A stretch of DNA of 61,790 nucleotides, counting the filler. It is 6 parts of 6 records of this genome, joined end to end, with 100 filler letters (N's around TTAATTAATTAA, not from the genome) between each part and the next. Parts side by side here need not be neighbours in the genome. Positions count along the whole stretch, not along the records: positions 1 to 19,806 come from SRR20825010_5720; 5 more parts are not named here. The stretch is one strand, 5' to 3'. Both the position numbers and the translations under genes were made by a program. Below the pieces are notes generated by a model, which saw only the letters and a program-made list of their open reading frames with translations, was not told the origin of the DNA and searched no databases. Position 1 is the first letter of the stretch, and each line of letters starts with the position of its first letter. This document shows positions 1 to 53,286 of this stretch, piece after piece.

Positions 1-934
<934 letters not shown>

Positions 935-976
935 AGCGTCGTCTCTTCCCGATGTGATGGTTTCTGTTTTGTTTGC

Positions 977-1717
977 TCACGCCGTCACCAGGGTGAGGGC
1001 GGGATAGCGAGCCTTGATGCGGTCGTCATTCATGGCGACTTCGAGATTGCGCCGGGCAAGGCGGGCATGCTCGCGGGCGAGGGCCTCGGCCCTGCTGCCC
1101 TCCCGCAACTCGATGGCGTTCACGATGGCCCGGTGCTGCGATTGGGCGAGCACCAGAGAGCCATGAAATTCGGGCAGGTCACGCTGCACCATGAGAAGCG
1201 CATTCGGGCTGGCGAAAGGCAGAGCCGTCAGCCGGTCTATTTCCCGGGCAATCACCGAACTGCCGCAACTTTCTCTCACCAGGGCATGGAATGCGGCATT
1301 GCAGGCGGTATAGGCATCATGATCGAGATCGTTGCCCGTGGCCTGAAGCAGAGCGTCGATCTCCGACAGCAATGTCCTGAAAGCCATGATCTGTGCCGGA
1401 GAGATGCCGCGTTCGGCGGCAAGACGGGCGGCGGTGCCCTCAAGCACGCCGCGCAGTTCTATGGCATCCAGAATGTCGTCGGTCGCGAATTTGCGGACGG
1501 CAAAGCCACCGGACGGAATGGCGTCGACCGCGCCTTCCTGCTCCAGCCGGGCAAGGGCGGCGCGGACCGGAGTACGGGAAAGCTGCAATCGCTCGGCGAT
1601 GGCCGGTTCGCTCAATCGGGCGCCAGGCTCGAATACTCCGGAAAACAGAAGTTCTCGAATTCCGGTGAGCGCGCGCTCAGACTGGCTTCGCGTCCTTTCC
1701 TGGCTTTCGCTCTCCAT
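977..1717 (-). CDS. GntR family transcriptional regulator (FadR/VanR-like, FCD domain)
   Basis: wHTH RLSEPAIAERLQLSRTPVRAALARLEQEG; FCD motifs NAAFH and AQSQHRAIVNAI. Start taken at MESESQ (1717). Confidence 0.9.
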   Translation of the reverse strand: MESESQERTRSQSERALTGIRELLFSGVFEPGARLSEPAIAERLQLSRTPVRAALARLEQEGAVDAIPSGGFAVRKFATDDILDAIELRGVLEGTAARLAAERGISPAQIMAFRTLLSEIDALLQATGNDLDHDAYTACNAAFHALVRESCGSSVIAREIDRLTALPFASPNALLMVQRDLPEFHGSLVLAQSQHRAIVNAIELREGSRAEALAREHARLARRNLEVAMNDDRIKARYPALTLVTA

Positions 1718-1775
1718 CAGTCGGGTGTCCCGGGTGTTTTGAACTATGCGAGATGATATTCGGTCAATCGTCACA

Positions 1776-1846
1776 TGTATACAGGTCGCTTTTATGTTGG
1801 TGGATTTTGTTGTGTTTTGGGGGTGATTTAACTCGTGATGTATACA
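1776..1846. promoter_or_regulatory. Two TGTATACA palindromes, putative GntR/FadR-type operators
   Basis: TGTATACA at 1776-1783 and 1839-1846, upstream of the GntR gene. Confidence 0.55.
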
Positions 1847-2076
1847 CAATGTTTCTTGATTGCCGGAATGCCGCCCTCTCGGGCGGGTTTCCATCATGTG
1901 GCATATCATCGAATTTTCTGATTAACCCTGTGTGTTCTGTCTAAAGTAATGCGTGATATGGACGGAGCCTGTTCCCGTTCATGTGACAAAGGCACGTGAT
2001 GTGTAGAAAGGGGCGACAGGAGGGCATCGCAAAACTGCATTGTAAATCATGGACAGGTGGCTGTGGGCGGAACTGA

Positions 2077-2577
2077 ATGACACTGCAAATTGTCCGGGGG
2101 ATAGAGGATCTGGAAGGCACCGATCCGGCTATCCAGGATTTTTATAAATATTGGCTGCGCCTTGTTCGAGAGAATGACGCTCTTCCGGCGCGGCGCCAGA
2201 TTGATCCGATCGAGATCTGGCCGCATATCGGTAAAATTGCGATCGCGGAGCTCTATAGAGACGGCGTTTTTGATCCCTGGTACCGGCTGGTTGGTGCCAA
2301 TATTTCGGAGCTTGCAGGCCGCTTTCTAAAAAACCGTCTGTACAGGGATCTGTATTCCAAAGAGCAGGCAGAGCAGCTTGGTGTGCTTTATCACGAGATA
2401 ATGCAGGACAAGTTGCCGCGCTATGAAGTCTCCAGCAACAAGCTGCCAGACCGGGAGTTCGTGAAGATTGCCCGGCTGATGACCCCGTTTGCCACAGATC
2501 ATCATAATGTTGATGTTATTGTTGGCCTTGTTGTCGCGGTTCAGGAGCGCCGGACAGTCCCCCGGCGATTATTTTAA
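2077..2577 (+). CDS. Stand-alone PAS-domain protein (PAS_5/DUF1457-like)
   Basis: Y..W....LPARRQIDP.EI..HI, YRLVG and RLMTPFATD...VDVIVG pattern, typical of alphaproteobacterial PAS_5 proteins. Confidence 0.75.
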   Translation: MTLQIVRGIEDLEGTDPAIQDFYKYWLRLVRENDALPARRQIDPIEIWPHIGKIAIAELYRDGVFDPWYRLVGANISELAGRFLKNRLYRDLYSKEQAEQLGVLYHEIMQDKLPRYEVSSNKLPDREFVKIARLMTPFATDHHNVDVIVGLVVAVQERRTVPRRLF

Positions 2578-2770
2578 AACTGTAATGTCTGATTCCGAGT
2601 CCGGGAAACAGGGAAACGCCAGATCGGAGGGGAGGAAAGCCCTCTCCGAAGCCGTTTTGCCGCACCCGCGTTGACGCTCCGGAAGCTTTCGTGAATAGTC
2701 TTCCCGCTAGAAAAAACTATTGAAATGTCATGCGTTAGATCGCATTCCCGGGCAAACATGCGAGCGGTAA

Positions 2771-4885
2771 ATGGGGTTCTCGAAAACTAATTTGCGCTTG
2801 CGGCCGGTCATTCTGACGTTGTTCGTCATTCTGACCTTGCCCGTATTCTTGAGCATCGTTGCGGTGAACTACGTTTCCAATCAGGAAGCGGCGCATGCCT
2901 ATGCGGAGAAGCTGCTTCTCCGCTTCAATAACGAAGCTATCGACAATATGGAGCAATTGTTCGAGCCGATTAAGTCGCTGGTGCGCAGTGCCGCGACACT
3001 GGGCGGCGCGTTGCCTTCATTCTACGAAGATAACGGGTCGATCACCTATCTTCACAGCATCCTCCAGCATAGCGACGTTATCATCAGCGCCTATGTCGGG
3101 TTGGAAGACGGCTCTTTCCGGCAGGCCCGTCAGATCGATCCGGCTGTCCAGGTACAAGGCAAGTTGCCGCCGCCGGAGACGCGATACGCCGATCGCTGGA
3201 TCACGCGCGCGCCTGGGCAGGTGCCGACCGATCATTATATTTTCCTTGATAAGGAGCGTCGGGAGATTGGCCGGTCCGACAAAGGCACCTCCTACGATCC
3301 GCGCGGACGGCTTTGGTATGAAACGGCCCTGGCGTCGGGCGGTCTCTCCGTCAGCGATGTCGATGTTTTCGCCGTGCTGGATCTTGTCGGCTTCACCGTC
3401 GGAGCGCCTTTTTACGGAGCGGACGGCAATCTGCGCGGCGTTGCCGCCGCTGACATCACCCTGGACGGTCTGTCGGACTATCTGGCCGAGAGCAAGATCA
3501 GCGCGGGGACAATCTCCTTCATTCTGGATCATCAGGGCGGTGTGATCGCCAATTCGCGTCAGGAAAAGACCTATGGCAGCCGAAGCGGCCGTCCCGAGCT
3601 GATGCATGTGACCTCGCTCGATGACGATCTGCCGGCGATTGCCTTCAGCCTGCGGCCGCGCGACAGCGAGGGGATGTATGTCTTTGAACATGATGGCAGG
3701 GAATATGTTGCGAGCCTGACGACATTCCCGCCGTCTTTCGGCAAGGCATGGCAATTGTTCGTCGTCACGCCGTTCTCGGACTTCACCGGCACACTGGAAG
3801 AGCGGAACAGGCAGCTTTTCATCTTCGGTCTGATCGCCATCCTGGTGCAGATCATCATCATCTACTTCCTCTCGGGCGTGATCTCTGCACCGCTTGAGAG
3901 GCTCGCGGTGAAGGTGACGAGGATCAAGGATCTGGACGTGGAGAGTCCGCTGGCGCTGCAAACCCCGATCCGGGAGGTCGCCCTGCTCGGGCGTGCGATT
4001 GATACGCTCGATACGACGGTTAAATCCTTCGCGTCCTTCGTGCCGGTCGATCTGGTGCGGCAGCTTCTCGACACCGATCAGAAGATGGCGCTGGGCGGCT
4101 ACAACAAGTTCCTCACCATCTTTTTCTCCGATATCGAGGGCTTCTCGACACTTTCGGAATCCACACCGTCGAAACAGCTTTTGCAGCGGGTTTCGGCCTA
4201 TCTCGAGGCAGTGACACGGGCGACCAAGCAGGAAAGCGGAACCATCGACAAGTTCATTGGCGATGGGGTAATGGCGTTCTGGGGCGCGCCGAACCGGCTG
4301 GACGACCATGCCATGCATGCCTGTTTCGCGGCTCTCAGAATTCAGCATGAAATGGCCCGCATGAACGCGGAGTGGAAAGCCCAGGGGATGATGCCGCTGA
4401 ACATCCGCATCGGCATTCACAGCGATGCGGTTCTGGTCGGCAATATCGGGTCCTCGGACCGGATGAATTACACGGTCATGGGCGATGGCGTGAACATTGC
4501 TTCCCGGCTGGAGGGTATCAACAAGGATTACGGAACACGGATCTGCATCAGCCACACAGTGTTCAAGGAAGCTGGTGACCGGCTGTGCGTCCGGCCGATC
4601 GACGAGGTCGCTGTCAAGGGGCGCCGGTCCAAGGTGCCGATCTACGAGCTGGTCGGCGCTTACGATCTGGAAGCCGAGTTCGAGCCCGACGCACAGCTTG
4701 TGCGGCTTTGCGAGATGACGCGCGATGCCTATACGGCGCTGGTTGCGGAGGATCTTGAACTCGCACTGGAACGCTACGAGGCAATCCTGGTCGAATATCC
4801 GGATGATACAGTAGCGCGTGAAATGGCGCGGAGGCTCGCTCCCGCTGCACCAAAATTGAGTGAATCCAAAGAAATTTCGGACTGA
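2771..4885 (+). CDS. Membrane class III adenylate/guanylate cyclase (TM-dCache-TM-HAMP-cyclase-TPR-like tail)
   Basis: Two hydrophobic segments flank a Cache region (YDPRGRLWY, GVAAADITL). Cyclase motifs FFSDIEGFS, IDKFIGDGVMAFWGAP, YTVMGDGVNIASRLEG and VKGR. The K and T specificity residues point to ATP use. Confidence 0.93.
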   Translation: MGFSKTNLRLRPVILTLFVILTLPVFLSIVAVNYVSNQEAAHAYAEKLLLRFNNEAIDNMEQLFEPIKSLVRSAATLGGALPSFYEDNGSITYLHSILQHSDVIISAYVGLEDGSFRQARQIDPAVQVQGKLPPPETRYADRWITRAPGQVPTDHYIFLDKERREIGRSDKGTSYDPRGRLWYETALASGGLSVSDVDVFAVLDLVGFTVGAPFYGADGNLRGVAAADITLDGLSDYLAESKISAGTISFILDHQGGVIANSRQEKTYGSRSGRPELMHVTSLDDDLPAIAFSLRPRDSEGMYVFEHDGREYVASLTTFPPSFGKAWQLFVVTPFSDFTGTLEERNRQLFIFGLIAILVQIIIIYFLSGVISAPLERLAVKVTRIKDLDVESPLALQTPIREVALLGRAIDTLDTTVKSFASFVPVDLVRQLLDTDQKMALGGYNKFLTIFFSDIEGFSTLSESTPSKQLLQRVSAYLEAVTRATKQESGTIDKFIGDGVMAFWGAPNRLDDHAMHACFAALRIQHEMARMNAEWKAQGMMPLNIRIGIHSDAVLVGNIGSSDRMNYTVMGDGVNIASRLEGINKDYGTRICISHTVFKEAGDRLCVRPIDEVAVKGRRSKVPIYELVGAYDLEAEFEPDAQLVRLCEMTRDAYTALVAEDLELALERYEAILVEYPDDTVAREMARRLAPAAPKLSESKEISD

Positions 4886-4888
4886 ACT

Positions 4889-5599
4889 ATGCCTGAATAC
4901 AAAGAATTTACCGTGGCGCCGCCTGCGCTTCGACCGAGTGAGTATACGGCGGCACTGATCCATGCCCTGCAATGTGACAGGGATCGGGTCCGCGGTAAGA
5001 ACGTGCTGGAAATGGGTTCCGGAAGCGGTGTGATACTTGCCGCACTGGCCGACCTTGGTGCTGCATCCCTGTGCGGAATCGATGTTGAGGATGACGCCGT
5101 TGCCGCTGGCACGTTCCTGCTTCAGGAACTGGGACATGGCAAGCTGGGCAAGATCCATCAGGGCAGCATGTGGCAACCGGTGACAGGCCGCCGCTTCGAT
5201 CTTATCGCGGCCAACTTGCCGCATTTTGCGATGGAAGACCACGAAGTGCCGGGGCGGCACACCACCTGGAGCGCCGGTGGTCCGAACGGCCGCAGGCTGC
5301 TCGACCCCTTTTTGCATGGCTTGAGCGGGCATCTGGCCGAGGGCGGCCGGGCGATCATCACCCATAATGGTTTTGTCGGCCTTGACGCCTCGCAGGCGAT
5401 TGCCGCTGAATATGGTCTCTCTCTTCAAGTCGTCGCGACGGTTCTCGTGTCGATACCGCCCGAAAAGCTCGCCCTGATGACCCCGCAGATCCTGTTGGCG
5501 GAGAAGGGGAAATCAGTGCACCGTTATGGTCCCTATACATTTGCCGATATGCATGTCGTTGAAATTGCCGGCAAGGGGCAGGTCTCGAATGATGCATGA
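4889..5599 (+). CDS. Class I SAM-dependent methyltransferase, HemK2/PrmC-like
   Basis: Motif I VLEMGSGSG, NPPY-like FDLIAANLPHF, and WSAGGPNGRRLLDPFL. Starts 3 bp after the cyclase stop. Confidence 0.8.
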   Translation: MPEYKEFTVAPPALRPSEYTAALIHALQCDRDRVRGKNVLEMGSGSGVILAALADLGAASLCGIDVEDDAVAAGTFLLQELGHGKLGKIHQGSMWQPVTGRRFDLIAANLPHFAMEDHEVPGRHTTWSAGGPNGRRLLDPFLHGLSGHLAEGGRAIITHNGFVGLDASQAIAAEYGLSLQVVATVLVSIPPEKLALMTPQILLAEKGKSVHRYGPYTFADMHVVEIAGKGQVSNDA

Positions 5600-7250
5600 T
5601 TGGCGCTTACTGGGGCTGGTCGCAGGGTTTCTGACTGCCATGATGGTTCCGGCAGTGGCGGAAAAACCTGATGCGGCACTGACGCGCCTGATCGGTGAGG
5701 CCCGTATCGAGGCTGAAACGCCCGGGACCTGTGAGAAGCCCGGTATCGATCGTCTGATACGGATCTTCTGTGACGGCCAAATCCGGGCGGGTATTCGCGA
5801 AAAATATCCTTTGTTCGGCACGCGCGAAGGCGATGAGCGTTTCGGCTATGACGTGGACGTTGCCCGCGCGGTTGCAGCAAGGCTGGGAGTCGAGCCGGTC
5901 TTCACCCGGGTGAAGGCGGCGACCCGTATCGTCCTGCTGGATGAAGACAAGATCGACGTGGTTCTGGCAACCATGGGCCATAACACCCAGCGCGACGGTC
6001 AGGCCCGCTTCATCCGTCCGCACTATTACCAGTCCGAAACCGTTCTGATCGGGCCGAAAGAGCTGAAGGTGGCGGGCTGGAAGGATATTGCCGGGCATAG
6101 TATCTGCGTGACGATAGGCAACGGCTCCAACGCCCAGATGATCTCTCATCAGGCCCGCCTCATGCTGTTCGAGGAGGCGACTGTGCTTCCTGTGCGCCTC
6201 GCGGATGAGACCTGCATGCTGGCGGCGCAGGACAACAGCTTCTTCGCCTCCTACTTCACGGATGAGGATTTTGCCCGCCGTTTCGAGCCGAAATTCGGTT
6301 TCGCGCAAGTGCCGTGGGGCATGGCGGTGGCGCGCACCGGTAGTGACAGGCTGGCACAGGTGCTCGACCTGATGAGCCAGACCTTCCATCGCACTGGCGT
6401 CTTTCTGGAAAACGGCCGGAAGAACAAGATTGCGGCCGGTTTTCTGGAAAGCCAGAAAGAGGTCTGGGCCAGGCCGGAATGCAATACAGCCGAAGGCAAC
6501 AAGGACCCAGCATGCATCCTGCCGCCGCTCGATGCGGCTCTGGAGCCGACATCGTTCATCGGAAATATCGTCGCGGTGGAACAATGGATAGCCGACACTA
6601 CGGGGCTGTCCGTGTCCCTGCCGATGTTCAAGACAATGCCGGCATGGACGCTGTTCCAGAGCGGCGTCGTCAATTCGCTTTATCTGGTTGTTGGCGCGCT
6701 CGGCGCGACACTGTTTTTTGCCCTTCTTCTGGGGGCGTTGCAAAGCTCGGAGAACCCCGTCGTCCAATGGGTCTTTCATGCCCTGACAGTGATCCTGCAA
6801 TCCTCTCCGGTGGTGCTCACCGTGGTGATTGCGGCGGCTGTGGCGCAGGAATTCTTCACCTATTCCTCCGTGGTTGCGATTGGCGCCGCCATCGTGGCGC
6901 TTGGCCTGATGAACGGCAGTAATGCGGGGCAGGCAATTGGTGAGGCGATGCACACACTGCATGCGGAGAACGCGGGTAAGGATATTCCCGAAACCCAGCT
7001 GTTCGGCCGTGCCGTGAGCCGGTCGGCCACCCAGATCGTCTCCTTTCTGATCAATGCGGCGAAAGGCACGCCTGTCGCCGCTTTCATCGGTGCGCCGGAG
7101 CTGCTGAGTGCCCTGACGGACATCACCTCCTTCGCAAGCGGACGGGCAACGACCTATACGATGCTGCTGGTGTTCTACGTTCTCGTCGTCATGGTCGTGG
7201 TCTGGCTGTGTGGCCGGTTACGGGTGGTTCTTGAAAGGAGGCACGCGTGA
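5589..7250 (+). CDS. Polar amino-acid-type substrate-binding domain (SBP family 3) fused to an ABC-type permease domain
   Basis: Signal peptide; GYDVDVARAVAARLGV, RIVLLDEDKIDVVLATM and HYYQS SBP3 motifs; C-terminal TM helices with GVVNSL and INAAKGTPVAAFIGAPEL permease pattern. Overlaps the methyltransferase stop. Confidence 0.85.
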   Translation: MMHDWRLLGLVAGFLTAMMVPAVAEKPDAALTRLIGEARIEAETPGTCEKPGIDRLIRIFCDGQIRAGIREKYPLFGTREGDERFGYDVDVARAVAARLGVEPVFTRVKAATRIVLLDEDKIDVVLATMGHNTQRDGQARFIRPHYYQSETVLIGPKELKVAGWKDIAGHSICVTIGNGSNAQMISHQARLMLFEEATVLPVRLADETCMLAAQDNSFFASYFTDEDFARRFEPKFGFAQVPWGMAVARTGSDRLAQVLDLMSQTFHRTGVFLENGRKNKIAAGFLESQKEVWARPECNTAEGNKDPACILPPLDAALEPTSFIGNIVAVEQWIADTTGLSVSLPMFKTMPAWTLFQSGVVNSLYLVVGALGATLFFALLLGALQSSENPVVQWVFHALTVILQSSPVVLTVVIAAAVAQEFFTYSSVVAIGAAIVALGLMNGSNAGQAIGEAMHTLHAENAGKDIPETQLFGRAVSRSATQIVSFLINAAKGTPVAAFIGAPELLSALTDITSFASGRATTYTMLLVFYVLVVMVVVWLCGRLRVVLERRHA

Positions 7251-7891
7251 TGAGCCAGTTTCCGGATCTCTCCCAGTTCCTGCCGCAGTTGCTCGCCGGC
7301 ATGGTGGTCAATTTCGAGATCGCCTTCATCGCGCTGGTCGTTGGCCTTGTCCTTGGCGGGGTGCTCTGCCTGCTCAGCCTCTCGGGCGGTATTCTCAAGG
7401 TGATTGTCGCCACTCTGGTCGGGGTGATGCGGGCAGCCCCAACCTTTGTCGTCATGTTCTTCCTGCTGAACGCCATCCCGAGCGGGACCGCGATCACCAT
7501 CGGAGAGATGAGCTTCGGCCTGGCGCCGTCGCCTCTGATGGCAGTCGCGCTTTCCCTCGTGCCGTATTCAGCGTCCTATGTGGTGGATAACGGGATCGAG
7601 GCGGTGATGCAGTTGCGCCGGGGCTCGATGCTGGGGGCGCTGCTGTTCCTGCCGAACATCACCCGGGCCTTCTTCGTGCTGGTCATGTCTTCCAGCACCG
7701 GTGCGGCCATTGGTGTGAACGAGGGGATTGCCGTTATCCTGAGGGCCGCGGCGCCGATGACCTCGCTTGCGGACAAGATGGTCCTGTTCGCCATCGGCAT
7801 TCTCTGTTTCGGTCTGACCCTGCAGCTCGGTTTCTTCCTGATGCGGCGGTTGCAGCGTCAGCTTGGCCGGTATGCGGTACCGGCTGGCTGA
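7247..7891 (+). CDS. HisM/GlnP-like amino-acid ABC permease (divergent)
   Basis: LPQLLAGMVVNFEIA, VMRAAPTFV and SSSTGAAIGV match the permease pattern; overlaps the upstream stop. Confidence 0.8.
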   Translation: MMSQFPDLSQFLPQLLAGMVVNFEIAFIALVVGLVLGGVLCLLSLSGGILKVIVATLVGVMRAAPTFVVMFFLLNAIPSGTAITIGEMSFGLAPSPLMAVALSLVPYSASYVVDNGIEAVMQLRRGSMLGALLFLPNITRAFFVLVMSSSTGAAIGVNEGIAVILRAAAPMTSLADKMVLFAIGILCFGLTLQLGFFLMRRLQRQLGRYAVPAG

Positions 7892-8827
7892 CTAGAGGCT
7901 GATCCCGCTCTGCTCCGGATGCATCAGGCAGCGGTCCCAGTGTGGTGCGCCGCCGAAATGCTCGACCAGGATATCGATCAGCACGCGCACCTTGCCGGGC
8001 ACATTGGCGCCCGGTGGCCGGATCACGTAGATCCCGTGCTCCGCGAGGGGGAAGTTCGGCAGCACCGGCTCGACGGCGCCGCTTGCGAGGGCGTCGGAAA
8101 GCATGAAGGTAGGCCCGCCCGTAATCCCGTGCCCTTCAATGGCCCAGGCGAGCAGGGCATCTCCATTATCCGATCTCAACCGGCCTGACGGACGAACGGA
8201 AACCCACCGGTCGCCGTTGCGGAGGGTGATGTCCGGATCGGAACTGCCGGTATAGATCAGACAGTCATGGTTCGTCAGATCCACCGGTTTTTCCGGCCGG
8301 CCCCGGCGGGCGAGATAGTCGGGGCTGGCGACCAGAACAGAGCGGGCGGGGCCGATGCGGCGGGCGATCAGGCTGGAATCCCGCAATGTGCCGATGCGGA
8401 TGGCGACATCGAACCGCTCGGCGATCAGATCGACTTTCCGATCGCTGAAGGAAACATCGATTTCTAGTCTGGGGTGACGCTTCGCCAGCTCGGAGAGGAC
8501 GGGCACGACATGCCGCGTGCCGAAAGAGAGCGGGGCCGACAGGCGCAGACAGCCGACCACGTCCCCACCATGCTGGGCCACGGCTTCCCGGGCATCGTCA
8601 TATTCCGCGAGAATGCGCTCGCAGCGCATGGTGAATTCCAGCCCGGGCTCGGTCGGGCTGACACCGCGCGTGGTCCGGTTCAGCAGCACGGTGCCGAGAT
8701 CCGCCTCGATCCGGGCGATGCGGCGGCTGACGATGGACTTTGATATGCCGAGATAAGCCGCCGCCCGATTGAAGCCGCCGCTTTTCACCACTTCGAGAAA
8801 GCAGCGTATGTCTTCGATTTCGATCAT
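7892..8827 (-). CDS. LysR family regulator (CrgA/DmlR-like)
   Basis: HTH GGFNRAAAYLGISKSIVSRRIARIEADLG, LLNRTTR, GCLRLSAPLSFG and FDVAIRIG; divergent from azoR. Confidence 0.93.
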   Translation of the reverse strand: MIEIEDIRCFLEVVKSGGFNRAAAYLGISKSIVSRRIARIEADLGTVLLNRTTRGVSPTEPGLEFTMRCERILAEYDDAREAVAQHGGDVVGCLRLSAPLSFGTRHVVPVLSELAKRHPRLEIDVSFSDRKVDLIAERFDVAIRIGTLRDSSLIARRIGPARSVLVASPDYLARRGRPEKPVDLTNHDCLIYTGSSDPDITLRNGDRWVSVRPSGRLRSDNGDALLAWAIEGHGITGGPTFMLSDALASGAVEPVLPNFPLAEHGIYVIRPPGANVPGKVRVLIDILVEHFGGAPHWDRCLMHPEQSGISL

Positions 8828-8831
8828 CAGG

Positions 8832-8850
8832 TGTTCCTCCCAGAGCAACA
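8832..8850. promoter_or_regulatory. Putative LysR box (TGTT-N11-AACA)
   Basis: tgttcctcccagagcaaca, a T-N11-A dyad next to the lysR start in the divergent lysR/azoR region. Confidence 0.5.
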
Positions 8851-8939
8851 GCGTAGCGCATTTAGCGCTCATTCCGATCCGGATGCCGGACCACTACCTT
8901 ATCGGAAACGCCCTGACCAGCAGACATTGGACCCAGATC

Positions 8940-9557
8940 ATGTCGACCATCCTCGTTCTCACCAGCAGCGCCCTCGGTGATGCCTCCACTTCCGGACTGC
9001 TTATCGATGAAGCGGTTGCGAAACTTCAGGCCCAGCAACCGGGTGCGACAATCATCCGCCGTGATGTCGGTGGCTCTCCGCTGCCGCATCTTACCGAAAA
9101 CACAGTCGGCATCATTCGCGGCGCCGAGGCGACGAATGACGAGCAGGTGGCCGCGAAAAAGCTGGCCGCCGAACTCGTTGCTGAACTGCAGGCTGCCGAC
9201 ACCGTGCTGATTGGCGCGCCGATGTATAATTTCGGCATTACCTCGACCCTGAAGACATGGTTCGACCATGTGCTGCAGGTCGGCGTGACGTTCCGCTATA
9301 CGGAGAATGGCCCGGAAGGTCTGTTGAGCGGCAAGCGCGCGATCGTTGTCGAAACCCGCGGCGGCCTCTATAGCGAGGGCCCGGCCCAGGTCATGGACGC
9401 GCAGGAGCCGCATCTGCGCGGCATGCTCGGTTTCATCGGGATCACAGACGTGACCTTCGTCCGGGCCGAGAAGCTCGCCTTTGGTGACGAAGCCCGCGAA
9501 GAATCCCTGACCGGTGCCCGCAAGGCGCTGGATGGCGCGTTCGCGGCTGCTGCGTGA
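8940..9557 (+). CDS. azoR: FMN-dependent NADH-azoreductase
   Basis: ILVLTSS, GAPMYNFGITSTLKTWFD, GVTFRYTENGPEGLL, TRGGLYS and LGFIGITDVTFVRAE. Confidence 0.93.
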   Translation: MSTILVLTSSALGDASTSGLLIDEAVAKLQAQQPGATIIRRDVGGSPLPHLTENTVGIIRGAEATNDEQVAAKKLAAELVAELQAADTVLIGAPMYNFGITSTLKTWFDHVLQVGVTFRYTENGPEGLLSGKRAIVVETRGGLYSEGPAQVMDAQEPHLRGMLGFIGITDVTFVRAEKLAFGDEAREESLTGARKALDGAFAAAA

Positions 9558-9569
9558 TCCATCTAATAC

Positions 9570-9604
9570 AAAGCCGCCGCCGGAGTGATCCGGCGGCGGC
9601 TTTT
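9570..9604. terminator. Probable bidirectional rho-independent terminator
   Basis: aaagccgccgccgga-gtga-tccggcggcggctttt, a perfect stem between convergent genes. Confidence 0.85.
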
Positions 9605-9627
9605 GCTTATCTGCTTTTCAGATACGC

Positions 9628-10524
9628 TTACTTTTTCAGGCGCGGCTTTTCGATATTCGCTAGGTCGCAATGCGCGTCCGCCATGGCGGAGAAATCCTGT
9701 TTGCCGAAGCCCCGGGCGCGGGCGGCGGTGAACATCTCCCGCGCGGCGGCGGCCATCGGCATCGGCACCTTGGCGGCGTTCGCGGCCTGGATGATCAGCG
9801 ACAGGTCCTTGTGGGCGAGATCGATGGTGAAGCCCGGCGCCGTATCGCCCTTTAGCACCTTGTCCGGCCAATTCACCTTGAGCTGGCCGTTCACCGCCGT
9901 CGTGCCGTAGATCACGTCCAGTGTCCGCTCAAGATCGAGACCGAAGCCCTGGGACAGGGCCAGCGCTTCGGCGTTGAACTGGCAGGATGCCACGGCGAGG
10001 AAGTTGTTCACGAGCTTCGTGCGGGTTCCGGTGCCCACTCCGCCGCAGTGATAGACGGTGGTTCCCATGGCTTCGAGCATCGGCTTCACCCGCTCGAAGT
10101 CTTCTGGCTCCGCACCGACCATGAAGAGGGATTCACCCCGGTCAGCATGCTGGGCGAGGCGGCCGACCGGTGCATCGACAAAGCTCAGGCCCTTTGCCTT
10201 GGCGGCCGCAGCCAGTTCGTCCGTCGTCTCCGGATCGACCGTGCTCATGTCGAGGATGAGGGCGCCTTTCGAGGCGTTCGCGATAATCCCGTCCGGCCCG
10301 GCGACAACCTCACGCACAACGGGCGAGTCGGGCAGCATGGTCACGATCACGTCGGACTTGCTGGCGACTTCGGCAACGGTCGCCGCGCTCGACGCCTGCA
10401 GCAGTTCCAGCTCCTTCACCGCATCCTGATTGATGTCGTTGACGACAAGCCGGAAGCCCTTGCGGCAAAGGTTGGACGCCATCGGGCGTCCCATGCGGCC
10501 AAGTCCGATAAAACCGACATTCAT
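9628..10524 (-). CDS. NAD-dependent beta-hydroxyacid dehydrogenase (3-hydroxyisobutyrate dehydrogenase family, YihU-like)
   Basis: GFIGLGRMGRPMA, DMSTV, DAPVGR, catalytic KLVNN, and WPDKVLKGD.APGFTIDLAHKDL. Confidence 0.88.
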   Translation of the reverse strand: MNVGFIGLGRMGRPMASNLCRKGFRLVVNDINQDAVKELELLQASSAATVAEVASKSDVIVTMLPDSPVVREVVAGPDGIIANASKGALILDMSTVDPETTDELAAAAKAKGLSFVDAPVGRLAQHADRGESLFMVGAEPEDFERVKPMLEAMGTTVYHCGGVGTGTRTKLVNNFLAVASCQFNAEALALSQGFGLDLERTLDVIYGTTAVNGQLKVNWPDKVLKGDTAPGFTIDLAHKDLSLIIQAANAAKVPMPMAAAAREMFTAARARGFGKQDFSAMADAHCDLANIEKPRLKK

Positions 10525-10714
10525 TTGGTTTCTTCCTCCCAGAAGATGCCGAGACCGTGCGGCTGATCAGCCTTGCCGGTCTTCATGCACGTGATTGAGT
10601 GCGCCGGAGAGATCCGCCGCTATCGATGGAAGAAGAATTACCACGCCGCGGGGCGGGCGGTCACCGGCCGGAAAGTGCAGGGCGTTATTCCGCCATGTCA
10701 CGATCTGTGAATGC

Positions 10715-12007
10715 TCAGGTGCGCTTCACCAGATCCCGTTCGTCCTGCCATGCCCACCAGCGGGACAGCAGGTCCGCTACCTTTCGGGAGAATGGTTTGA
10801 AGGGGACTTTCTTGAATGGCAGGTCGTCGAAGGCAGTCTCCGCACCCTTCTCGCCAAGAATCCGGCGGGACAGTTTCATGGCGAAATAGAGGCTGCGGGT
10901 GACGCCGGAGCCGCAATACCCGCCGGCGAGCCAGACGCCGTCTTCGAAGCCGAGGTGAGGGGAATGGTCCGGGGTATAGGCGACATCGCCGTACCAGACA
11001 TGCGCGGTCCCGATGCCTTCAAGCTGAGGGAAAATCCGGAGAGATGCGGCCCGGATCGCGGCGGCGCGCTGCTCCGGCGTGCAGCCCGGCTCGCCCATGC
11101 GGCCGCCGAAGATGAAGCGCTTGCCATCGGGCGTGGGCCGGAACCACATGAAGATCCGGGCGGACTCCCCGAACATGCGGCTTTTCGGTGTCAGCTCCGC
11201 CATCAGGTCCGCCGGAATTTCCTCGGTAGCGATGGCGCCGGTGCGGATCTGCACCACGCGCTGATGCATCGCGTTGGAGCGGCGGTCGGCATAGCCGTTG
11301 GTCGCAACCAGAACATCGCGGGCCGTGATCACACGGTCGCCGCAGAAAAGCTCCGTTTCCGTGCCGTTGCGGCGCATGCCCCGAACGGGGGTCGAGGGAA
11401 ACAGCAATGCGCCGGCTTCGATGGCTTTCTCGGCCAGAGCGTTGGCCAGCTTGCGCGGATGGATGCCGCCGTCGCGGTGATAGACCACACCGCCATCGAA
11501 GAAACCCGTGCCGATCTCGGCGCGCTGGTTTTCCTTGGCTACCATCTCGAAGGGCAGGCCAACGGCCTTGTTCAGCCGCTCGCATTCCCGCGCTGTCGAG
11601 TCATAGGCGGCGACGCTGCGGGCACCCCGAAAACGGCCAGTCATCTGCAGGTCGCAATCGAGTTTTTCATCCGCGACGAAACTCTCGAAATAATCGAGCG
11701 CGTTCATGCCTTCCTGCATGATCGCATGGGCTTTCTTCTCACCGTACTGGGAGGTCAGGCCTGAAATGCCGAGCTGATGAAAACTGGGGCCGACCATGCC
11801 GCCGTTGCGGGACGAGCAGCCGTGACCGATCTCCTCCGCGTCGAACACGGCGACGGAGCGTCCCGCCCGCGCCAGATGGATGGCCGAGGCAAGTCCGGTA
11901 TATCCGGCGCCGACGATGGCAACGTCGACGCGCTCCGGCAGCGTGCTTTCGGACGTGGTCCGGGCAGCGGCGGCGCTTGCGTTCCAGTAGATACTGTTGC
12001 TTGCCAT
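10715..12007 (-). CDS. FAD-dependent oxidoreductase (DAO family, PuuB/OrdL-like)
   Basis: DVAIVGAGYTGL, GCSSRNGG, IHPRKL, LVATNGY and GGYCGSGV. Confidence 0.88.
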   Translation of the reverse strand: MASNSIYWNASAAAARTTSESTLPERVDVAIVGAGYTGLASAIHLARAGRSVAVFDAEEIGHGCSSRNGGMVGPSFHQLGISGLTSQYGEKKAHAIMQEGMNALDYFESFVADEKLDCDLQMTGRFRGARSVAAYDSTARECERLNKAVGLPFEMVAKENQRAEIGTGFFDGGVVYHRDGGIHPRKLANALAEKAIEAGALLFPSTPVRGMRRNGTETELFCGDRVITARDVLVATNGYADRRSNAMHQRVVQIRTGAIATEEIPADLMAELTPKSRMFGESARIFMWFRPTPDGKRFIFGGRMGEPGCTPEQRAAAIRAASLRIFPQLEGIGTAHVWYGDVAYTPDHSPHLGFEDGVWLAGGYCGSGVTRSLYFAMKLSRRILGEKGAETAFDDLPFKKVPFKPFSRKVADLLSRWWAWQDERDLVKRT

Positions 12008-12012
12008 GGTCT

Positions 12013-12774
12013 CTAGTCCTTAACGGTCCAGCTGTCCCGGTGCCGTGCGGTGGGGAATCGGTCCTCGAGACCCAACTCCGCGATCCGCTCGATGCTGGCC
12101 TCGAACAGATTGCGCATGATGGGCATGGTTTCGGGCTCCAGCGCAACACGGCGGATGGTGTCTTCGCGTCCCTGATAGGCTTCGTACAAGGCGCGCAGAT
12201 CGGCAACGGCGTCAGTGTTGGAGACATCGATCCGGAGATCGTAGGTATCGATGCCGTGCTCTCCGGTGACGCGCAGAGCTGCCGAACGGAGCGGGCCGAG
12301 GATCTCACCGCCACTGTCGCGCCCGGCTTCCAGAGCTTTCATCAGCCGTTCGGCAAGCGGCAGGGAAGGATCGCGGGTGAACGCGTCTGCCATCTTCTGG
12401 GGGACTTGCGGATTGGCGAGGATATTGCCGAGTGCGAGGCAGTTCCGGCCAACCGTGTGGGAGTAGATCGAATACATCCGGCGGCCATGATAGGCGGCTG
12501 CCCGGCCATCGGAGTCGAGCGCACCGATCTGGCGCCACTCGATATCGGCGGTTGAGGCACAGACCTCCGAGACCACGGCATCCGCCGCCGTGCCCTTGGC
12601 CAGCAGGGAGATACCGAGATCGCCAAGACGGCTGTCGGTGCGGTGCTGGGACAGCATGGCGCCACGTCCGTGGGACAGGCGCACACAGCGGGATCCAACG
12701 GCAAGGTCGGATGTGGTGATGGCCGCGCCATAGCAGCCCGTGCGCTCGCAGCGGCCGATGATTGAAAAGGTCAT
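12013..12774 (-). CDS. DUF1028 family protein (Ntn-hydrolase-like)
   Basis: N-terminal MTFSI, ALGNILA, LAERLMKALEAGRDSGG, RSAALRV and DLRID. Confidence 0.85.
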   Translation of the reverse strand: MTFSIIGRCERTGCYGAAITTSDLAVGSRCVRLSHGRGAMLSQHRTDSRLGDLGISLLAKGTAADAVVSEVCASTADIEWRQIGALDSDGRAAAYHGRRMYSIYSHTVGRNCLALGNILANPQVPQKMADAFTRDPSLPLAERLMKALEAGRDSGGEILGPLRSAALRVTGEHGIDTYDLRIDVSNTDAVADLRALYEAYQGREDTIRRVALEPETMPIMRNLFEASIERIAELGLEDRFPTARHRDSWTVKD

Positions 12775-12812
12775 GTAGTCCCCCTTGGCTCCCGTCGGGC
12801 GGGATTATTTTC

Positions 12813-14183
12813 TCAGACGGGGTCGGTCGCCGGAAGCGGCACGCCCCTGTCCTCTGCTTCGAACTTTTTCCACATCGCCTCGGTCGCGGCCTGCGCTTCC
12901 GTTACGGCGGCCTTCTCGTCGATGGTCAGCAATTCCCTGTCCCGCATCAGGAACCGGCCGTCGACCATGGTGTCGGTGACAAGTCCCGGGTGTCCGTAAT
13001 GCACCAGGTTGGATATCGCGGAAAGCCGCGGCGTCATGGCCGGTGTCATCAGGTCGATCATGGCGAGATCGGCCTTCATGCCGGGCGCGATATGACCGAT
13101 GCCCGGATGATCCAGCGCGCGGGCGGCGTTGACGGTGGCGTAGTTAAAGACATCGTTCGGCGTCGGCGTGACCGAGCGGCCATAGGCGCCGCGATGCACG
13201 GTCAGGCCGAGCTTCATGGCATGGAACATGTCCTCGGTCATGTTGTCTGTGCCGAGAGCGATGTTCACACCGGATTCGAGGATCGCCTTGATCGGCAGAC
13301 TGTGCGGTCCCTTGGCGGACATCGAGGCCGGGCAGTGAGCGAAATGCGTGCCGGTCTCTGCCAGGATCTGGACATCCTGCTCTGTGCAGAAGGTCCAGTG
13401 AACGGCCAGCAGGTCGTCGCCGAGGAAATCGTTGCGCTGGAGATATTCCGTCGAGGTGCAGCCATGCAGGCTTTCGACCTGTTTCTTCTCGCTGATGATC
13501 TGGCTGAGATGGACCGTGCGGCGCAGGCCGTGCTGCCCGGCGAGCTTCTTCAGCTCGGCCAGCATCCAGGGGCTGCAATTGTCCGGGGCGTGGGCGGAGA
13601 TCATCACCCGGACGCGGTCATCCTCGGTGCCGTGGAAGCGTTCGATCAGAGCGCGGGTGCGGGTAAGGAAGGTCTCGCCGAAGTCCCGGTCGAACCGGTA
13701 AGTGCCGCTGCCGACTTCGGTGGTGACAGCGTCGGCGCAGCTTTCCGCAAGCCAGAGCCGCATGCCGGTATCCACCATCGCTGGCGCGTAATCGGCCACG
13801 TGGCGCAGCGGATCGACCATGGTCGTGGTGCCGGAGCGGATTGCCTCGGCGCAGGCCAGCCGGGCGATGGCGGCGCGCTCCTGCGGCTCCAGCAGATAGG
13901 AGGCCGGAACCATGTACTGGTAGACGAGATTGCCCTCGATATCCTCGACCGTTCCCCGCAGCACCAGCAACACCGCGTGGGTGTGGGCGTTGATCAGGCC
14001 GGGGGAGACTAGCCGGTCAGTCATGTCGACGGGTTCGAAATCCGCGAAGTCGGTGCCGTTCAGGCTCTCGGTGATAGCGGCGATCCGGCTGCCGTCGATG
14101 GCGATATGGCCCCGGCGGATTTCGGGCTTTCCATCCGCGCCATGATGGACATAGCGCGCGTCACGCAGCAGCAATCGGGTCAT
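12813..14183 (-). CDS. Metal-dependent amidohydrolase/deaminase (MTA/SAH deaminase, AtzA-like family)
   Basis: PGLINAHTH, SGTTT, SAHAP, HLSQ, AVH, HCP, ALGTD and GMKADL. Confidence 0.88.
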   Translation of the reverse strand: MTRLLLRDARYVHHGADGKPEIRRGHIAIDGSRIAAITESLNGTDFADFEPVDMTDRLVSPGLINAHTHAVLLVLRGTVEDIEGNLVYQYMVPASYLLEPQERAAIARLACAEAIRSGTTTMVDPLRHVADYAPAMVDTGMRLWLAESCADAVTTEVGSGTYRFDRDFGETFLTRTRALIERFHGTEDDRVRVMISAHAPDNCSPWMLAELKKLAGQHGLRRTVHLSQIISEKKQVESLHGCTSTEYLQRNDFLGDDLLAVHWTFCTEQDVQILAETGTHFAHCPASMSAKGPHSLPIKAILESGVNIALGTDNMTEDMFHAMKLGLTVHRGAYGRSVTPTPNDVFNYATVNAARALDHPGIGHIAPGMKADLAMIDLMTPAMTPRLSAISNLVHYGHPGLVTDTMVDGRFLMRDRELLTIDEKAAVTEAQAATEAMWKKFEAEDRGVPLPATDPV

Positions 14184-14184
14184 G

Positions 14185-14964
14185 TCATGCGGTCTTCTTG
14201 CGCAGGGAAACGGCGACGGTGGCAATCAGGGAGAGGATGACAAGGAAAGTTGCAACCGCCGCGATGGTCGGATCGATGCTCTCCTGAATGCCTTCCCAGA
14301 TCTGCTTCGGCAGGGTGTTCACGTTGCGGACGGTGAGGAACAGCACGCCGACGATTTCATCGAAACTGACGATGAAGGCGAAGATGCCGCCGGTCAGCAT
14401 GCCGGGACGGATCGCCGGAACGATGACGGCGACCACCGTCTGCCAGACCGAGGCGCCGAGGCTGCGTGCAGCCTGGGTGATACGGCGGTCAAGATTGGCC
14501 AGCGCGGTGAAGACCGAGATCGAGACGTAGGGCAATGCCAGCAGGGTGTGGGCCAGGATCACGCCGAAATAGGTGTCGATCAGGTCGAGCTTTACCCAGA
14601 ACCGGTAGAAGCCGAGGGACTGGACCACGGGCGGTACCAGGATCGGCACGATCAGCACCCAGCGGGCAATGGTCGAAGCCCGGCTGGAAATCAGCCAGCA
14701 GCCGATGGAGAAAGCGGTGCCGAGCACGGTGGCTGCAAGGGCGACGGCGACACCGACCCAGATACTGGTCCAGGTCGCGCCGAGCCATTCGGCGGAGCTG
14801 AAATAGTTCTCGTAATGCTGCAGAGACAGATGCTCTTTCGGCAGGCCGATATAGCTGGTGTCGGTCAGCGAGATCGGAATCACCACGAGCATCGGCAAGA
14901 GCAGGAACGCTAGGACGGCCCAAGCCCCTGTGTTGAAGAAGATGCGGAACGGCGAATTCTTCAT
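14185..14964 (-). CDS. ABC transporter permease (PotC-like)
   Basis: FLLLPMLVVIPIS, EAA-type loop QAARSLGAS, and FIVSFDEIV. Start MKNSPF at 14964. Confidence 0.9.
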   Translation of the reverse strand: MKNSPFRIFFNTGAWAVLAFLLLPMLVVIPISLTDTSYIGLPKEHLSLQHYENYFSSAEWLGATWTSIWVGVAVALAATVLGTAFSIGCWLISSRASTIARWVLIVPILVPPVVQSLGFYRFWVKLDLIDTYFGVILAHTLLALPYVSISVFTALANLDRRITQAARSLGASVWQTVVAVIVPAIRPGMLTGGIFAFIVSFDEIVGVLFLTVRNVNTLPKQIWEGIQESIDPTIAAVATFLVILSLIATVAVSLRKKTA

Positions 14965-15806
14965 CAGTTGCGCTCCAGCAGGGCTGATTTCAGGTTCACG
15001 AAGCGCGCTGCGATAAGCAGGACCAGCGCCGTCGCGACCAGCAGCGCGACGGAGAGCGCCGAGCCAAGGCCCCAGGCCAGGAATTCCTGGATCTGATAGG
15101 TGATGTATTCGGAGATCATCAGCACGCGGCCGCCGCCAAGTAGCGCCGGGGTGACGAAGAAGCCGAGTGACAGGACGAAGACCAGCAGCGCGCCTGAGAA
15201 CACGCCGGGCAGCGTCTGCGGGAAATAAACCGAGCGGAAGGCTGTCCATTCGCTGGCGCCGAGGCCGCGGGCCGCTTCCGTATAGGAGCGGGAAATGCCG
15301 CGCATATTGGCCAGCATCGGCAGCACCGCGAAGGGCAGCATGACGTGGATCATGGCGATCAGAACGCCGAGTTCATTATGCATCAGGCGCAGCGGGCTGG
15401 TGATCAGCCCGATATCGCGCAGGGTATCGTTCACCAGGCCTGAGCGGCCAAGCAATATGATCCAGCTGAAAGAGCGGATCAGCACCGAGACCCAGAAGGG
15501 CAACAGCACCAGGGCCAGCATGAGCGGTGTCAGCCGGGTGATGAAATTCGAGATCGCATAGGCGACGATATAGCCGAGCAGCAGGCAGCCGACAGTGGTG
15601 ATGGCGGCCACGCGGAAGGTCAGGATGAAGCTGGTCTTGACCGCATTTGACTCCGTCATCTTGACGTAGTTGCCGAAACCGGTCGCCGGTTCGGTGAAGG
15701 AAATCTCCCAGATGCCGAGAACAGGCAGGATGTAGAAGATCACCATGATGGCCAGCGCGGGCAGCACTAGCATCCAGTAGCGGGTCTGGTCGGTCAGACG
15801 CAGCAT
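14964..15806 (-). CDS. ABC transporter permease (PotB-like)
   Basis: LLPFWVSVLIRSFSW, EAARGLGAS and GFFVTPALLGG. Start MLRLTDQ at 15806. Confidence 0.9.
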   Translation of the reverse strand: MLRLTDQTRYWMLVLPALAIMVIFYILPVLGIWEISFTEPATGFGNYVKMTESNAVKTSFILTFRVAAITTVGCLLLGYIVAYAISNFITRLTPLMLALVLLPFWVSVLIRSFSWIILLGRSGLVNDTLRDIGLITSPLRLMHNELGVLIAMIHVMLPFAVLPMLANMRGISRSYTEAARGLGASEWTAFRSVYFPQTLPGVFSGALLVFVLSLGFFVTPALLGGGRVLMISEYITYQIQEFLAWGLGSALSVALLVATALVLLIAARFVNLKSALLERN

Positions 15807-15840
15807 GTCGGCTCCGGTCGGGGAAGGGGCATAAAGGAAC

Positions 15841-15870
15841 GGGGCGGCTCCTGGAGGGAGGAGTCGCCCC
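15841..15870 (-). other. Intercistronic stem-loop downstream of the SBP gene
   Basis: Inverted repeat ggggcggctcct-ggaggg-aggagtcgcccc with one non-Watson-Crick position. Confidence 0.5.
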
Positions 15871-15886
15871 GCCCGCTCGGACAGGC

Positions 15887-17041: not shown

Positions 17042-17078
17042 GTGATGAAACCCTGTTTCTTGCTATTGCGAGGCTCTT

Positions 17079-18152: not shown

Positions 18153-18268
18153 AGAGTGCAGGCGTCCCGTCTATATGGGTGGCCGGGAGCGGTTCGGCCA
18201 GGATCGGGGCTGAGCAGACCATGTGAGCCTAAAACCTGAAAATAATAATTTGCTCAGATTTTATAATG

Positions 18269-19189: not shown

Positions 19190-19193
19190 CTCA

Positions 19194-19208
19194 ATAATCT
19201 CACCTTAT
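19194..19208. promoter_or_regulatory. Putative LysR box (ATAA-N7-TTAT)
   Basis: ataatctcaccttat, a T-N11-A dyad in the AT-rich divergent region between lysR and the carbamoylase gene. Confidence 0.55.
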
Positions 19209-19290
19209 TTATAGGGGTCCTAAATTTATTTCACGGTGATACTTGGCTCGTCTAGCACTTCATGTGTCGGAGATGAAAAGGAGGGCTTAC

Positions 19291-53186: not shown

Positions 53187-53286
53187 NNNNNNNNNNNNNN
53201 NNNNNNNNNNNNNNNNNNNNNNNNNNNNNNTTAATTAATTAANNNNNNNNNNNNNNNNNNNNNNNNNNNNNNNNNNNNNNNNNNNN
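53187..53286. other. Artificial contig spacer
   Basis: N-run with TTAATTAATTAA. Confidence 0.98.

Follow-up and report, generated by a model that had tools for sequence, protein, structure and literature searches.

A conserved gene cassette joining an ATPase-less, importer-derived membrane pair, a HemK2-like methyltransferase and a dCache adenylate cyclase: a possible receptor module

Type I ATP-binding cassette (ABC) importers of the polar-amino-acid type (PAAT), represented by Art(QN)2 (PDB entry 4YMS), HisQMP2 and GlnPQ, bring together a family-3 substrate-binding protein (SBP) that carries an Arg/Asp pair, two subunits of five transmembrane helices (TMs) each, and the ArtQ fold. GlnP has its binding domain fused ahead of TM1. 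Transporters and their relatives also act as sensors or co-sensors, as in UhpC/UhpB, BceAB-BceS, PstSCAB-PhoU-PhoR and yeast Snf3/Rgt2; signalling by BceAB and by Pst needs their ATPase. In LuxP-LuxQ, a binding protein stimulates a sensor of the Cache/double-PAS type. Here we describe a cassette of four genes, at positions 2771-7891 of a 61,790-nucleotide stretch of DNA (the window, six parts joined end to end, of which positions 1-19,806 are SRR20825010_5720). It encodes a class III adenylate cyclase with a dCache sensor domain, a HemK2-like methyltransferase (MT), a fusion of a binding domain to an importer-type membrane domain, and a second importer-type membrane protein. The reading we favour, tentatively and at somewhat short of an even chance, is an ATPase-less, transporter-derived receptor with a dedicated N-methyltransferase, wired in this case to the synthesis of cyclic AMP (cAMP).

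The cassette resembles PAAT importers in its SBP family with Arg/Asp, in its two five-TM subunits and in the ArtQ fold, and its fusion protein is arranged like GlnP; PDB entry 6H30, 'glutamine ABC transporter permease and substrate binding protein', is among the structure matches of the fused binding domain. It differs from them in having no ATPase in cis (74 of 80 homologous loci), in an EAA helix that is deleted or unrecognisable, in scoring below all curated cut-offs, and in having an MT gene always in front. With transporter-derived co-sensors, including BceAB (PMC3023708), it shares the genetic coupling of a transporter-like membrane protein to a signalling enzyme. Unlike BceAB and Pst, the cassette has lost the ATPase, has as its output a class III adenylate cyclase rather than a histidine kinase, and has an obligatory MT. 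As with Cache sensors stimulated by binding proteins (reviewed in PMC8050422), the genes for an SBP and a dCache domain are side by side in one system, and the two domains could meet in the periplasm. Unlike in LuxP-LuxQ, the SBP is tethered to an ABC-type membrane dimer and the dCache domain keeps a ligand motif of its own. The cyclase has the six canonical catalytic residues of membrane class III cyclases, and is set apart from them by its gene neighbours, which make up a cassette of four with it and include an ABC pair lacking an ATPase.

Full-text searches of a library of open-access papers turned up nothing that describes these four genes together, nor any type I ABC membrane pair lacking an ATPase; the initial annotation of this DNA had likewise not recognised the locus as a described system. 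It looks as if the cassette senses or handles nutrients in a manner not described before. The ATPase is the defining part of an ABC importer, and a strongly conserved family that retains the binding domain and membrane fold of an importer but has deleted the helix on which the ATPase docks would mean that the scaffold can be reused without ATP; its new role may be that of a receptor or of a device coupled to methylation. The module also offers a testable input route for the class III adenylate cyclases of bacteria, enzymes for which the signals in nature are mostly unknown, and supplies a candidate role for bacterial HemK2-like enzymes outside translation, which have had none assigned. Carriers that are in culture and non-pathogenic make such experiments feasible: Nisaea denitrificans DSM 18348, N. 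nitritireducens DSM 19540, Reyranella massiliensis 521, R. aquatilis, R. soli and Enhydrobacter aerosaccus ATCC 27094.

A scan of one genome per species returned 161 relatives, and the best 80 of these are the basis for the locus counts given throughout. Searches by tblastn with the window proteins found the cyclase full length in 68 loci, partial in 8 and missing from 4; the MT full length in 77, partial in 1 and missing from 2; and the second membrane protein full length in 74, partial in 3 and missing from 3. Every locus scored as missing a gene has no room for it on the contig, and the partial MT and partial second membrane proteins lie at contig ends, as do six of the eight partial cyclases; the other two partial cyclases are one read in three frames (locus L052) and one C-terminal remnant (L038). 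The initial annotation had named conservation of the four-gene order as a check, and no violation was found: as far as the contigs reach, each of the 80 loci keeps the order and strand of the four genes. The arrangement is far beyond chance, and it recurs in many bacteria of sea and soil. Identity to the window proteins is 52-100% for all four, with the membrane genes at 54-100% over 74-80 loci. The fusion gene overlaps the second membrane gene by 1-4 nucleotides (nt) in 20 of 21 loci; among about 20 diverse loci, the interval from MT to fusion gene ranges from -11 to +47 nt, and that from cyclase to MT from -4 to +194 nt.

The flanks of the cassette differ between Nisaea, the Reyranella group, betaproteobacterial bins and one Stellaceae bin. 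Within the Reyranella group (L006 and some 50 further loci) the flanks are conserved: the genes ahead of the cassette, on its own strand, encode a galactarate/altronate dehydratase and an amidase, and those downstream encode a short-chain dehydrogenase/reductase, a Cu/Zn superoxide dismutase and a pyridoxal-phosphate enzyme; the amidase is directly 5' of the cyclase in 55 loci. One contig labelled Lautropia, a betaproteobacterium (L035), has the cassette at the Reyranella level of identity (68-70%) along with flanks of Reyranella type, which suggests mis-binning. The cyclase of L052:5059-7130 occupies three frames (residues 5-248, 248-429 and 431-692), and is either a frameshifted pseudogene or the product of indel errors in a long-read metagenome-assembled genome (MAG).

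Three independent lines of sequence evidence agree in pointing to a missing ATPase: the flanks of the loci, the complete genomes, and the apparent loss of the docking site. A scan for Walker A plus LSGGQ in all open reading frames (ORFs), extending up to 8 kb into the flanks, gave candidates in 5 of the 80 loci, and tblastn with two canonical PAAT ATPases from a Nisaea genome gave matches in 6, all at 35% identity or less. No ABC ATPase-like sequence occurs within up to 8 kb in 74 of the 80 loci, and none of PAAT type in any. The match in L042, 1 kb downstream, belongs to a half-transporter of exporter type, which carries an ABC_membrane domain itself. Two matches checked with Pfam are proteins with tandem nucleotide-binding domains, encoded on the other strand about 4 kb away, and two more share their position and size; the match in L057, about 6 kb away, corresponds to a 379-residue ATPase frame in the Nisaea genome G001. 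In the window, the nearest ATPase is 9 kb off, at 17079-18152 (357 residues, ABC_tran plus TOBE_2), inside an operon with its own SBP_bac_8 and BPD_transp_1 genes. The initial annotation had reported that the operon has no ATP-binding subunit and had asked whether homologous loci lack one consistently; both points are borne out by these scans.

Complete genomes allow the same question to be put genome-wide. In the Nisaea chromosome that carries L057 (G001), model TIGR01726 picks out four clusters that together hold eight genes for canonical permeases, and a model for ectoine-type ATPases finds exactly four high scorers (266-400 bits; the next scores 177), one next to each permease cluster. The cassette membrane genes of this genome score 25-30 bits by TIGR01726 and have no ATPase of their own. 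A complete Reyranella chromosome (G002) has four PAAT-type ATPases, each beside canonical permeases. In a census limited to PAAT-type ATPases and permeases, within genomes that each hold more than 120 ABC ATPase matches, neither chromosome has an unpaired ATPase of this type. Elsewhere in the window, an ABC ATPase ORF at 52687-53238 (183 residues, ABC_tran alone) ends a sugar-type operon, whose other genes are SBP_bac_1 (49477-50805) and a pair of BPD_transp_1 type; being much shorter than the 357-residue protein described above, this ATPase may have suffered a truncation or a frameshift.

Pfam model BPD_transp_1 matches neither membrane part of the cassette, even at E<=10. TIGR01726, a model of the N-terminal three TMs, gives the two parts 24.5 and 29.7 bits versus a cut-off of 42.2, with the match in the fusion protein at residues 354-444; across the two complete genomes, cassette genes score 25-33 bits versus 57-99 for canonical permeases. 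The label 'permease' used in the initial annotation is only partly upheld, as Pfam recognises neither membrane part and the term has to draw on the weak TIGR01726 match and on a fold search. The fold search began from an AlphaFold2 (AF2) model of the second membrane protein, with a pLDDT of 77.5. Its best Foldseek matches are chains C and D of ArtQ in 4YMS (TM-scores 0.68 and 0.66, E about 1e-4), followed by MetI, DppC and SugA. By this model, the type I importer fold is kept in the second membrane protein. Alignment with four canonical permeases from G001 shows a gap of 20 columns at the EAA...LPQ segment of the second membrane protein, in the window sequence, in Enhydrobacter and in the distant soil clade described below. 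In the fusion protein, the membrane domain is about as long over this segment in the same alignment, but the EAA-G-ILP signature is absent. Judged by this alignment, the EAA/coupling helix on which an ATPase would dock is deleted from the second membrane protein and unrecognisable in the fusion protein.

The fusion protein begins with a signal-peptide-like N-terminus, as read from the translation, and continues through the SBP_bac_3 domain (E 4e-17) and a Cys-containing linker to five predicted TMs. The nearest relatives of its binding domain in the PDB are binders of Gln/Arg type, and it aligns to AncQR (4ZV1) and other amino-acid binders. R135 and D215, invariant in all 79 sequences aligned, correspond to the carboxylate-binding Arg and the amino-binding Asp region of the Gln/Arg binders. 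Six Cys (C48, C61, C173, C209, C298 and C309) are invariant in the periplasmic part of the protein, residues 48-309, which suggests three disulfides; to our knowledge, three disulfides are not typical of amino-acid binding proteins. A search for the fusion family found 694 matches among 7998 scored candidates. The 120 matches listed, at 61-99% identity, come from Nisaea, Reyranella and betaproteobacterial bins, with PF00497 alone, and about 190 columns are invariant among 14 diverse members.

The cyclase runs from TM1 through a periplasmic dCache_1 domain, TM2, a HAMP-like linker and the catalytic domain to a C-terminal tail of about 75 residues; the linker resembles HAMP in sub-threshold NCBIfam alignments, which Pfam does not confirm. 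Guanylate_cyc (PF00211) scores 69.8 bits versus a cut-off of 21.9. Six residues, D454, K494, D498, D572, N575 and R579, show no variation among the 68 cyclases aligned. We take D454 and D498 to be the two metal-binding Asp residues, K494 and D572 the adenine-specifying pair, and N575 and R579 the transition-state residues. By these residues, the cyclase looks catalytically intact and active. The sensor domain of the cyclase was compared with the amino-acid motif of dCache_1AA sensors, which PMC8915833 gives, in PctA numbering, as Y121, R126, W128, (Y129), Y144 and D173. A YxxxxRxWY sequence at residues 175-183 (Y175, R180, W182, Y183), together with D228, is invariant in all 68 cyclases. When the two are equated by spacing, these residues would be the carboxyl-binding part and the key Asp (Asp173) of that published motif; likewise by spacing, the residue equivalent to Tyr144 is a Phe, F200, in which the domain differs from sensors of the PctA type.

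The MT matches Pfam models MTS, Methyltransf_25 and PrmA, and matches NCBIfam models of HemK2/MTQ2 type below their cut-offs (TIGR00537, 58 bits versus 87; TIGR03534, 42 versus 199). Motif I reads LEMGSGSG, an N-terminal RPSEYT is invariant, and there is a C-terminal beta-hairpin. E41, G43, G45, D65 (the acidic residue of motif II, thus kept), N109 and P111 are invariant in 72 of 72 MTs, and G47 is conserved in 70. Motif IV, in place of NPPY, is NLPHF in 71 and NLPQF in the remaining one; the wider clade has NLP(H/Q/N/A)F. An AF2 model of the MT, with a pLDDT of 86.8, finds as its top Foldseek matches N6AMT1/HEMK2/KMT9-TRMT112 (E about 1e-11; query-normalised TM-scores 0.64-0.69). METTL5 and PrmC are also among the matches, as are the small-molecule N- or S-methyltransferases Asc-Orf2, MmtN and one of the gentamicin pathway. 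A query of the ESM Atlas returned just clusters called 'methyltransferase family protein'. Since the motifs for S-adenosylmethionine (SAM) are kept and the model is like N6AMT1/HEMK2, the MT is placed, by sequence and predicted fold, as an N-methylating enzyme of the HemK lineage outside every curated HemK family. With its SAM motifs apparently intact, the enzyme looks active.

HemK2/MTQ2/N6AMT1(KMT9)-TRMT112 and PrmC/PrmB share with the MT their fold, motif I and a W-S-x-G-G-x-D-G-R loop after motif IV. The MT is unlike the HemK2 group in its N-L-P-H/Q-F motif, its sub-cut-off scores, its invariant RPSEYT and its C-terminal hairpin. It is also unlike HemK2-TRMT112 in that no Trm112-like gene is seen in the cassette, and in that its genomic partners are membrane proteins rather than translation factors. 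HMMER searches of 1.84 billion cluster representatives returned 1601 relatives of the MT at E<=1e-3 and 46 at E<=1e-30. Relatives at 29-50% identity have in common an N-terminus resembling RPSEYT, the sequence NLP(H/Q)F and a hairpin at the C-terminal end; in the next shell, the canonical NPPY is found. The cassette does not look like a case of chemotaxis-type adaptation, in which CheR and CheB act on a methyl-accepting receptor: Pfam and NCBIfam scans of the four cassette proteins gave no match to CheR or MCPsignal, and the flanks were not searched for CheB. Ten long matches from the MT search were scanned, and none is a genuine fusion of the MT to a membrane domain or a cyclase. P0180, a candidate fusion of cyclase and MT, was rejected as an out-of-frame artefact with an Arg/Pro-rich junk linker. 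P0234 looks like a gene-call artefact on its Pfam result alone, and P0261 has no relation to the cassette fusion protein.

We propose that a single operon may specify a membrane signalling assembly of four proteins, whose mutual contact is inferred. The fusion protein and the second membrane protein would form a heterodimer descended from a PAAT-type ABC importer. As this pair has no ATPase and seemingly cannot dock one, it would act as a ligand receptor, a motor-less 'transceptor', and not as a pump. The HemK2-like N-methyltransferase would be its constant cytoplasmic partner. In the lineage comprising Nisaea, Reyranella and the betaproteobacterial bins, this trio would be co-expressed with the dCache cyclase and would provide a cAMP read-out of periplasmic amino-acid-like ligands; a ligand held in the fused binding domain could alter the cyclase by way of the membrane helices or of contacts between the binding domain and dCache in the periplasm. 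The data fit a transporter-derived device that has ceased pumping, and a conventional ATP-driven importer is unlikely. A receptor that feeds cAMP synthesis is favoured because the trio is co-expressed with the cyclase here and in at least 68 other species. The initial annotation had suggested a transporter-derived sensor that feeds ligand information to the cyclase. The conserved gene order, the lack of an ATPase and the lost docking site agree with the first half of this suggestion; the wiring itself is unsupported. The further suggestion that methylation tunes the cyclase found no support, as the MT is tied to the membrane pair and the trio persists without the cyclase.

This persistence is one of several points that weigh against a cyclase-coupled receptor. 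A distant MT (P0147, 38% identity) led to six soil-metagenome contigs. On L084 the MT is followed by the binding-domain/membrane fusion (37% identical) and the second membrane protein (36%), with no cyclase upstream; L085 and L086 have the same MT-to-fusion junction. This soil clade, at 36-45% identity, has MT and membrane genes without an adjacent cyclase. At L038:1-2400, an intact trio stands behind a cyclase remnant consisting of the last 120 or so residues (ORF 1267-1695). The trio may function without cAMP, given its occurrence without the cyclase in the soil clade and in L038, and the MT and membrane pair may have a function of their own that is independent of cAMP output. The cyclase, for its part, could sense alone by means of its near-complete amino-acid motif, and a co-sensor is therefore not obviously needed. 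The membrane helices are extraordinarily conserved and rich in small and polar residues, which suits a translocation path equally well as a signalling relay. No family-specific conserved cytoplasmic Gln or Lys stands out as a methylation target in the alignment with canonical permeases: Q448 is lost in the distant clade, and K492 and Q482 occur in canonical permeases too. Finally, an ATPase borrowed from another system is formally conceivable.

The MT is present beside the membrane pair wherever there is room, in all 78 core loci as well as in L084-L086 and L101. Since the soil clade keeps the MT and both membrane genes without an adjacent cyclase, these three appear to be the evolutionarily stable core, which the cyclase often accompanies, perhaps as an ancestral partner. 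The MT family was found in 6 of 401 sampled alphaproteobacterial genomes. In one genome, G153, the trio lies at 38-41% identity behind transposase fragments (L101:2117-3641), and a cyclase homologue, 46% identical, is on another short contig (L102:3236-4136). Both contigs have transposase or insertion-sequence-like remnants, including a common 164-nt repeat at 86% identity, and because of this repeat they may be neighbours. L101 is accordingly weakened as an example of a trio without cyclase; the cassette of G153 may have been split by an insertion sequence or by assembly.

Two side observations concern these loci. The MAG that holds L043 has the cassette twice, the second time as L038, where an ORF on the minus strand, unrelated to the cassette, precedes the cyclase remnant. 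Contigs of the soil clade encode, divergently from the MT, a long protein of PBP_like_2 (PstS-like) type (L084:1122-2891 and L085:2-1117, both on the minus strand), with about 200 extra C-terminal residues outside known families, and a TAXI-type binding protein is also divergent nearby. An ESM Atlas query with the L084 protein returned only PBP clusters. Orphan binding proteins seem to gather around the trio.

Because the trio is autonomous, two readings stay alive that put the MT rather than the cyclase at the centre. One is motor-less uptake with chemical trapping: the SBP would deliver amino-acid-like cargo to a passive or gated membrane pair, the MT would N-methylate that cargo in the cytoplasm, and the cyclase would be a separate, co-expressed sensor of the same class of compound. 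The composition of the unit that is stable across 36-100% identity (the MT and two membrane genes, without cyclase) speaks for it, as do the position of the MT gene directly before the membrane genes, overlapping or nearly abutting them, the extreme conservation of the membrane helices, the amino-acid Arg/Asp pair retained in the binding domain, and the small-molecule enzymes among the Foldseek matches. However, the nearest relatives of the MT in structure and sequence are protein Gln/Lys methyltransferases (N6AMT1/HEMK2/KMT9 and PrmC), no metabolic gene that would handle a methylated product accompanies the cassette from clade to clade, and we know of no precedent for methylation-driven uptake; we regard trapping as unlikely. 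The HemK2-type fold of the MT, with the invariant N109 and P111 of motif IV, would suit ligand-gated protein methylation, in which the MT is the receptor output in the former position of the ATPase, acts on the cyclase, a translation factor or another target, and leaves cAMP a secondary or lineage-specific role. The MT does accompany the coupling-helix-less pair at every locus with room, and the trio does survive without an adjacent cyclase; yet the long matches examined include no genuine fusion of the MT to membrane protein or cyclase, and the cytoplasmic surface of the pair, after loss of the coupling helix, would be very small. This second reading seems quite improbable. A broader proposal, which we think doubtful but worth stating, has the MT replace the ATPase outright: it would dock on the coupling-helix-less importer dimer, and ligand capture would gate SAM-dependent N-methylation of the cargo (group translocation) or of a protein such as the cyclase (transmembrane signalling). 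If true, an MT in the place of the ATPase would be a coupling mode not known for any ABC-type membrane domain.

More conventional explanations fare worse. ATPase sharing between importers is known, for example of MsiK type, the genomes hold more than 120 ABC ATPase matches each, and the importer fold is retained, so that an ordinary amino-acid importer with a shared ATPase encoded elsewhere, and with cyclase and MT as mere neighbours, has to be considered. Against such an importer stand the deletion of the EAA/coupling-helix segment in one subunit and its unrecognisable state in the other, the lack of a BPD_transp_1 match, the location of all PAAT-type ATPases in G001 and G002 beside canonical permease genes, and a four-gene linkage amid changing flanks that is unexpected for chance neighbours; we consider it very improbable. 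That the membrane genes are functionless remnants of a decaying transporter might be argued from the loss of sequence-family matches and of the ATPase. The reading frames, though, are intact over the 74-80 loci at the identities given above, the fusion protein has its invariant columns, and a relative at 36-41% identity has the same architecture, all of which together indicate strong purifying selection. Decay is scarcely credible, and the sequence data appear to exclude it.

The four plus-strand ORFs of the cassette were confirmed by ORF listing, Pfam, NCBIfam and direct reading of the junctions, at the coordinates collected in Table 1, in line with the tight coupling described for them at the outset. 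Three nt separate the cyclase stop from the ATG of the MT gene, and the MT stop overlaps the ATG of the fusion gene (5589) by 11 nt. The TGA of the fusion gene overlaps a GTG at 7247 by 4 nt, or an ATG at 7250 by 1 nt; a strong Shine-Dalgarno sequence, AAGGAGG, lies 8 nt 5' of the latter, which is the likely start of the second membrane gene.

Table 1. Coordinates of the cassette, its domains and adjoining features in the window
Feature	Position	Strand	Basis and remarks
Promoter-like site, TTGACG, 17 nt spacer, AATAGT	2671..2699	+	Weak candidate; 72 nt 5' of cyclase start
Membrane-bound class III adenylate cyclase, 704 residues	2771..4885	+	Pfam above cut-offs
dCache_1 sensor domain, residues 157-331	3239..3763	+	Pfam above cut-off
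Cyclase homology domain (Guanylate_cyc), residues 448-626	4112..4648	+	Pfam above cut-off
HemK2/N6AMT1-like SAM-dependent N-methyltransferase (MT), 236 residues	4889..5599	+	Pfam, sub-cut-off NCBIfam, fold
Fusion protein, SBP_bac_3 plus ABC-importer-type membrane domain, 553 residues	5589..7250	+	Pfam SBP_bac_3, weak TIGR01726
SBP part of fusion protein, residues 65-248	5781..6332
Five-TM domain of fusion protein, residues ~350-553	6636..7247
Second ABC-importer-type membrane protein, 214 residues, five helices	7247..7891	+	Weak TIGR01726, AF2/Foldseek fold
LysR-family regulator, convergent	7892..8872	-	Pfam HTH_1 plus LysR_substrate

The promoter-like site is a weak candidate only, since 1900-9000 holds four such sites versus 2.4 +/- 1.5 in shuffled sequence, no excess over chance; counts from a terminator scan are likewise no higher than in shuffles. 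Rfam gave no match in positions 1-10000 of the window. Each of the four genes is partly covered by contigs from four RNA libraries, two of which span the junction between the two membrane genes; at the cyclase/MT and MT/fusion junctions, two contigs reach across with fewer than 31 letters on one side and were not counted as bridging. These contigs are a weak hint of expression: they carry no information on transcript level, on strand or on whether there is a single transcript, gaps in coverage and bare flanks are uninformative, and carry-over of DNA is possible.

The TGA of the second membrane gene (7889-7891) meets the stop of the lysR gene without a spacer, so the convergent regulator does abut the operon here, as the initial annotation had it in calling the operon closed by lysR. 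It adjoins the cassette in just 4 of the 80 loci, all of them Nisaea, and is a lineage-specific neighbour outside the conserved cassette. On the other side, 5' of the cassette, lies a PAS_5 gene at 2077-2577, where a hairpin resembling a terminator occupies 2548-2567; only the two closest relatives, L001 and L002, share this neighbour.

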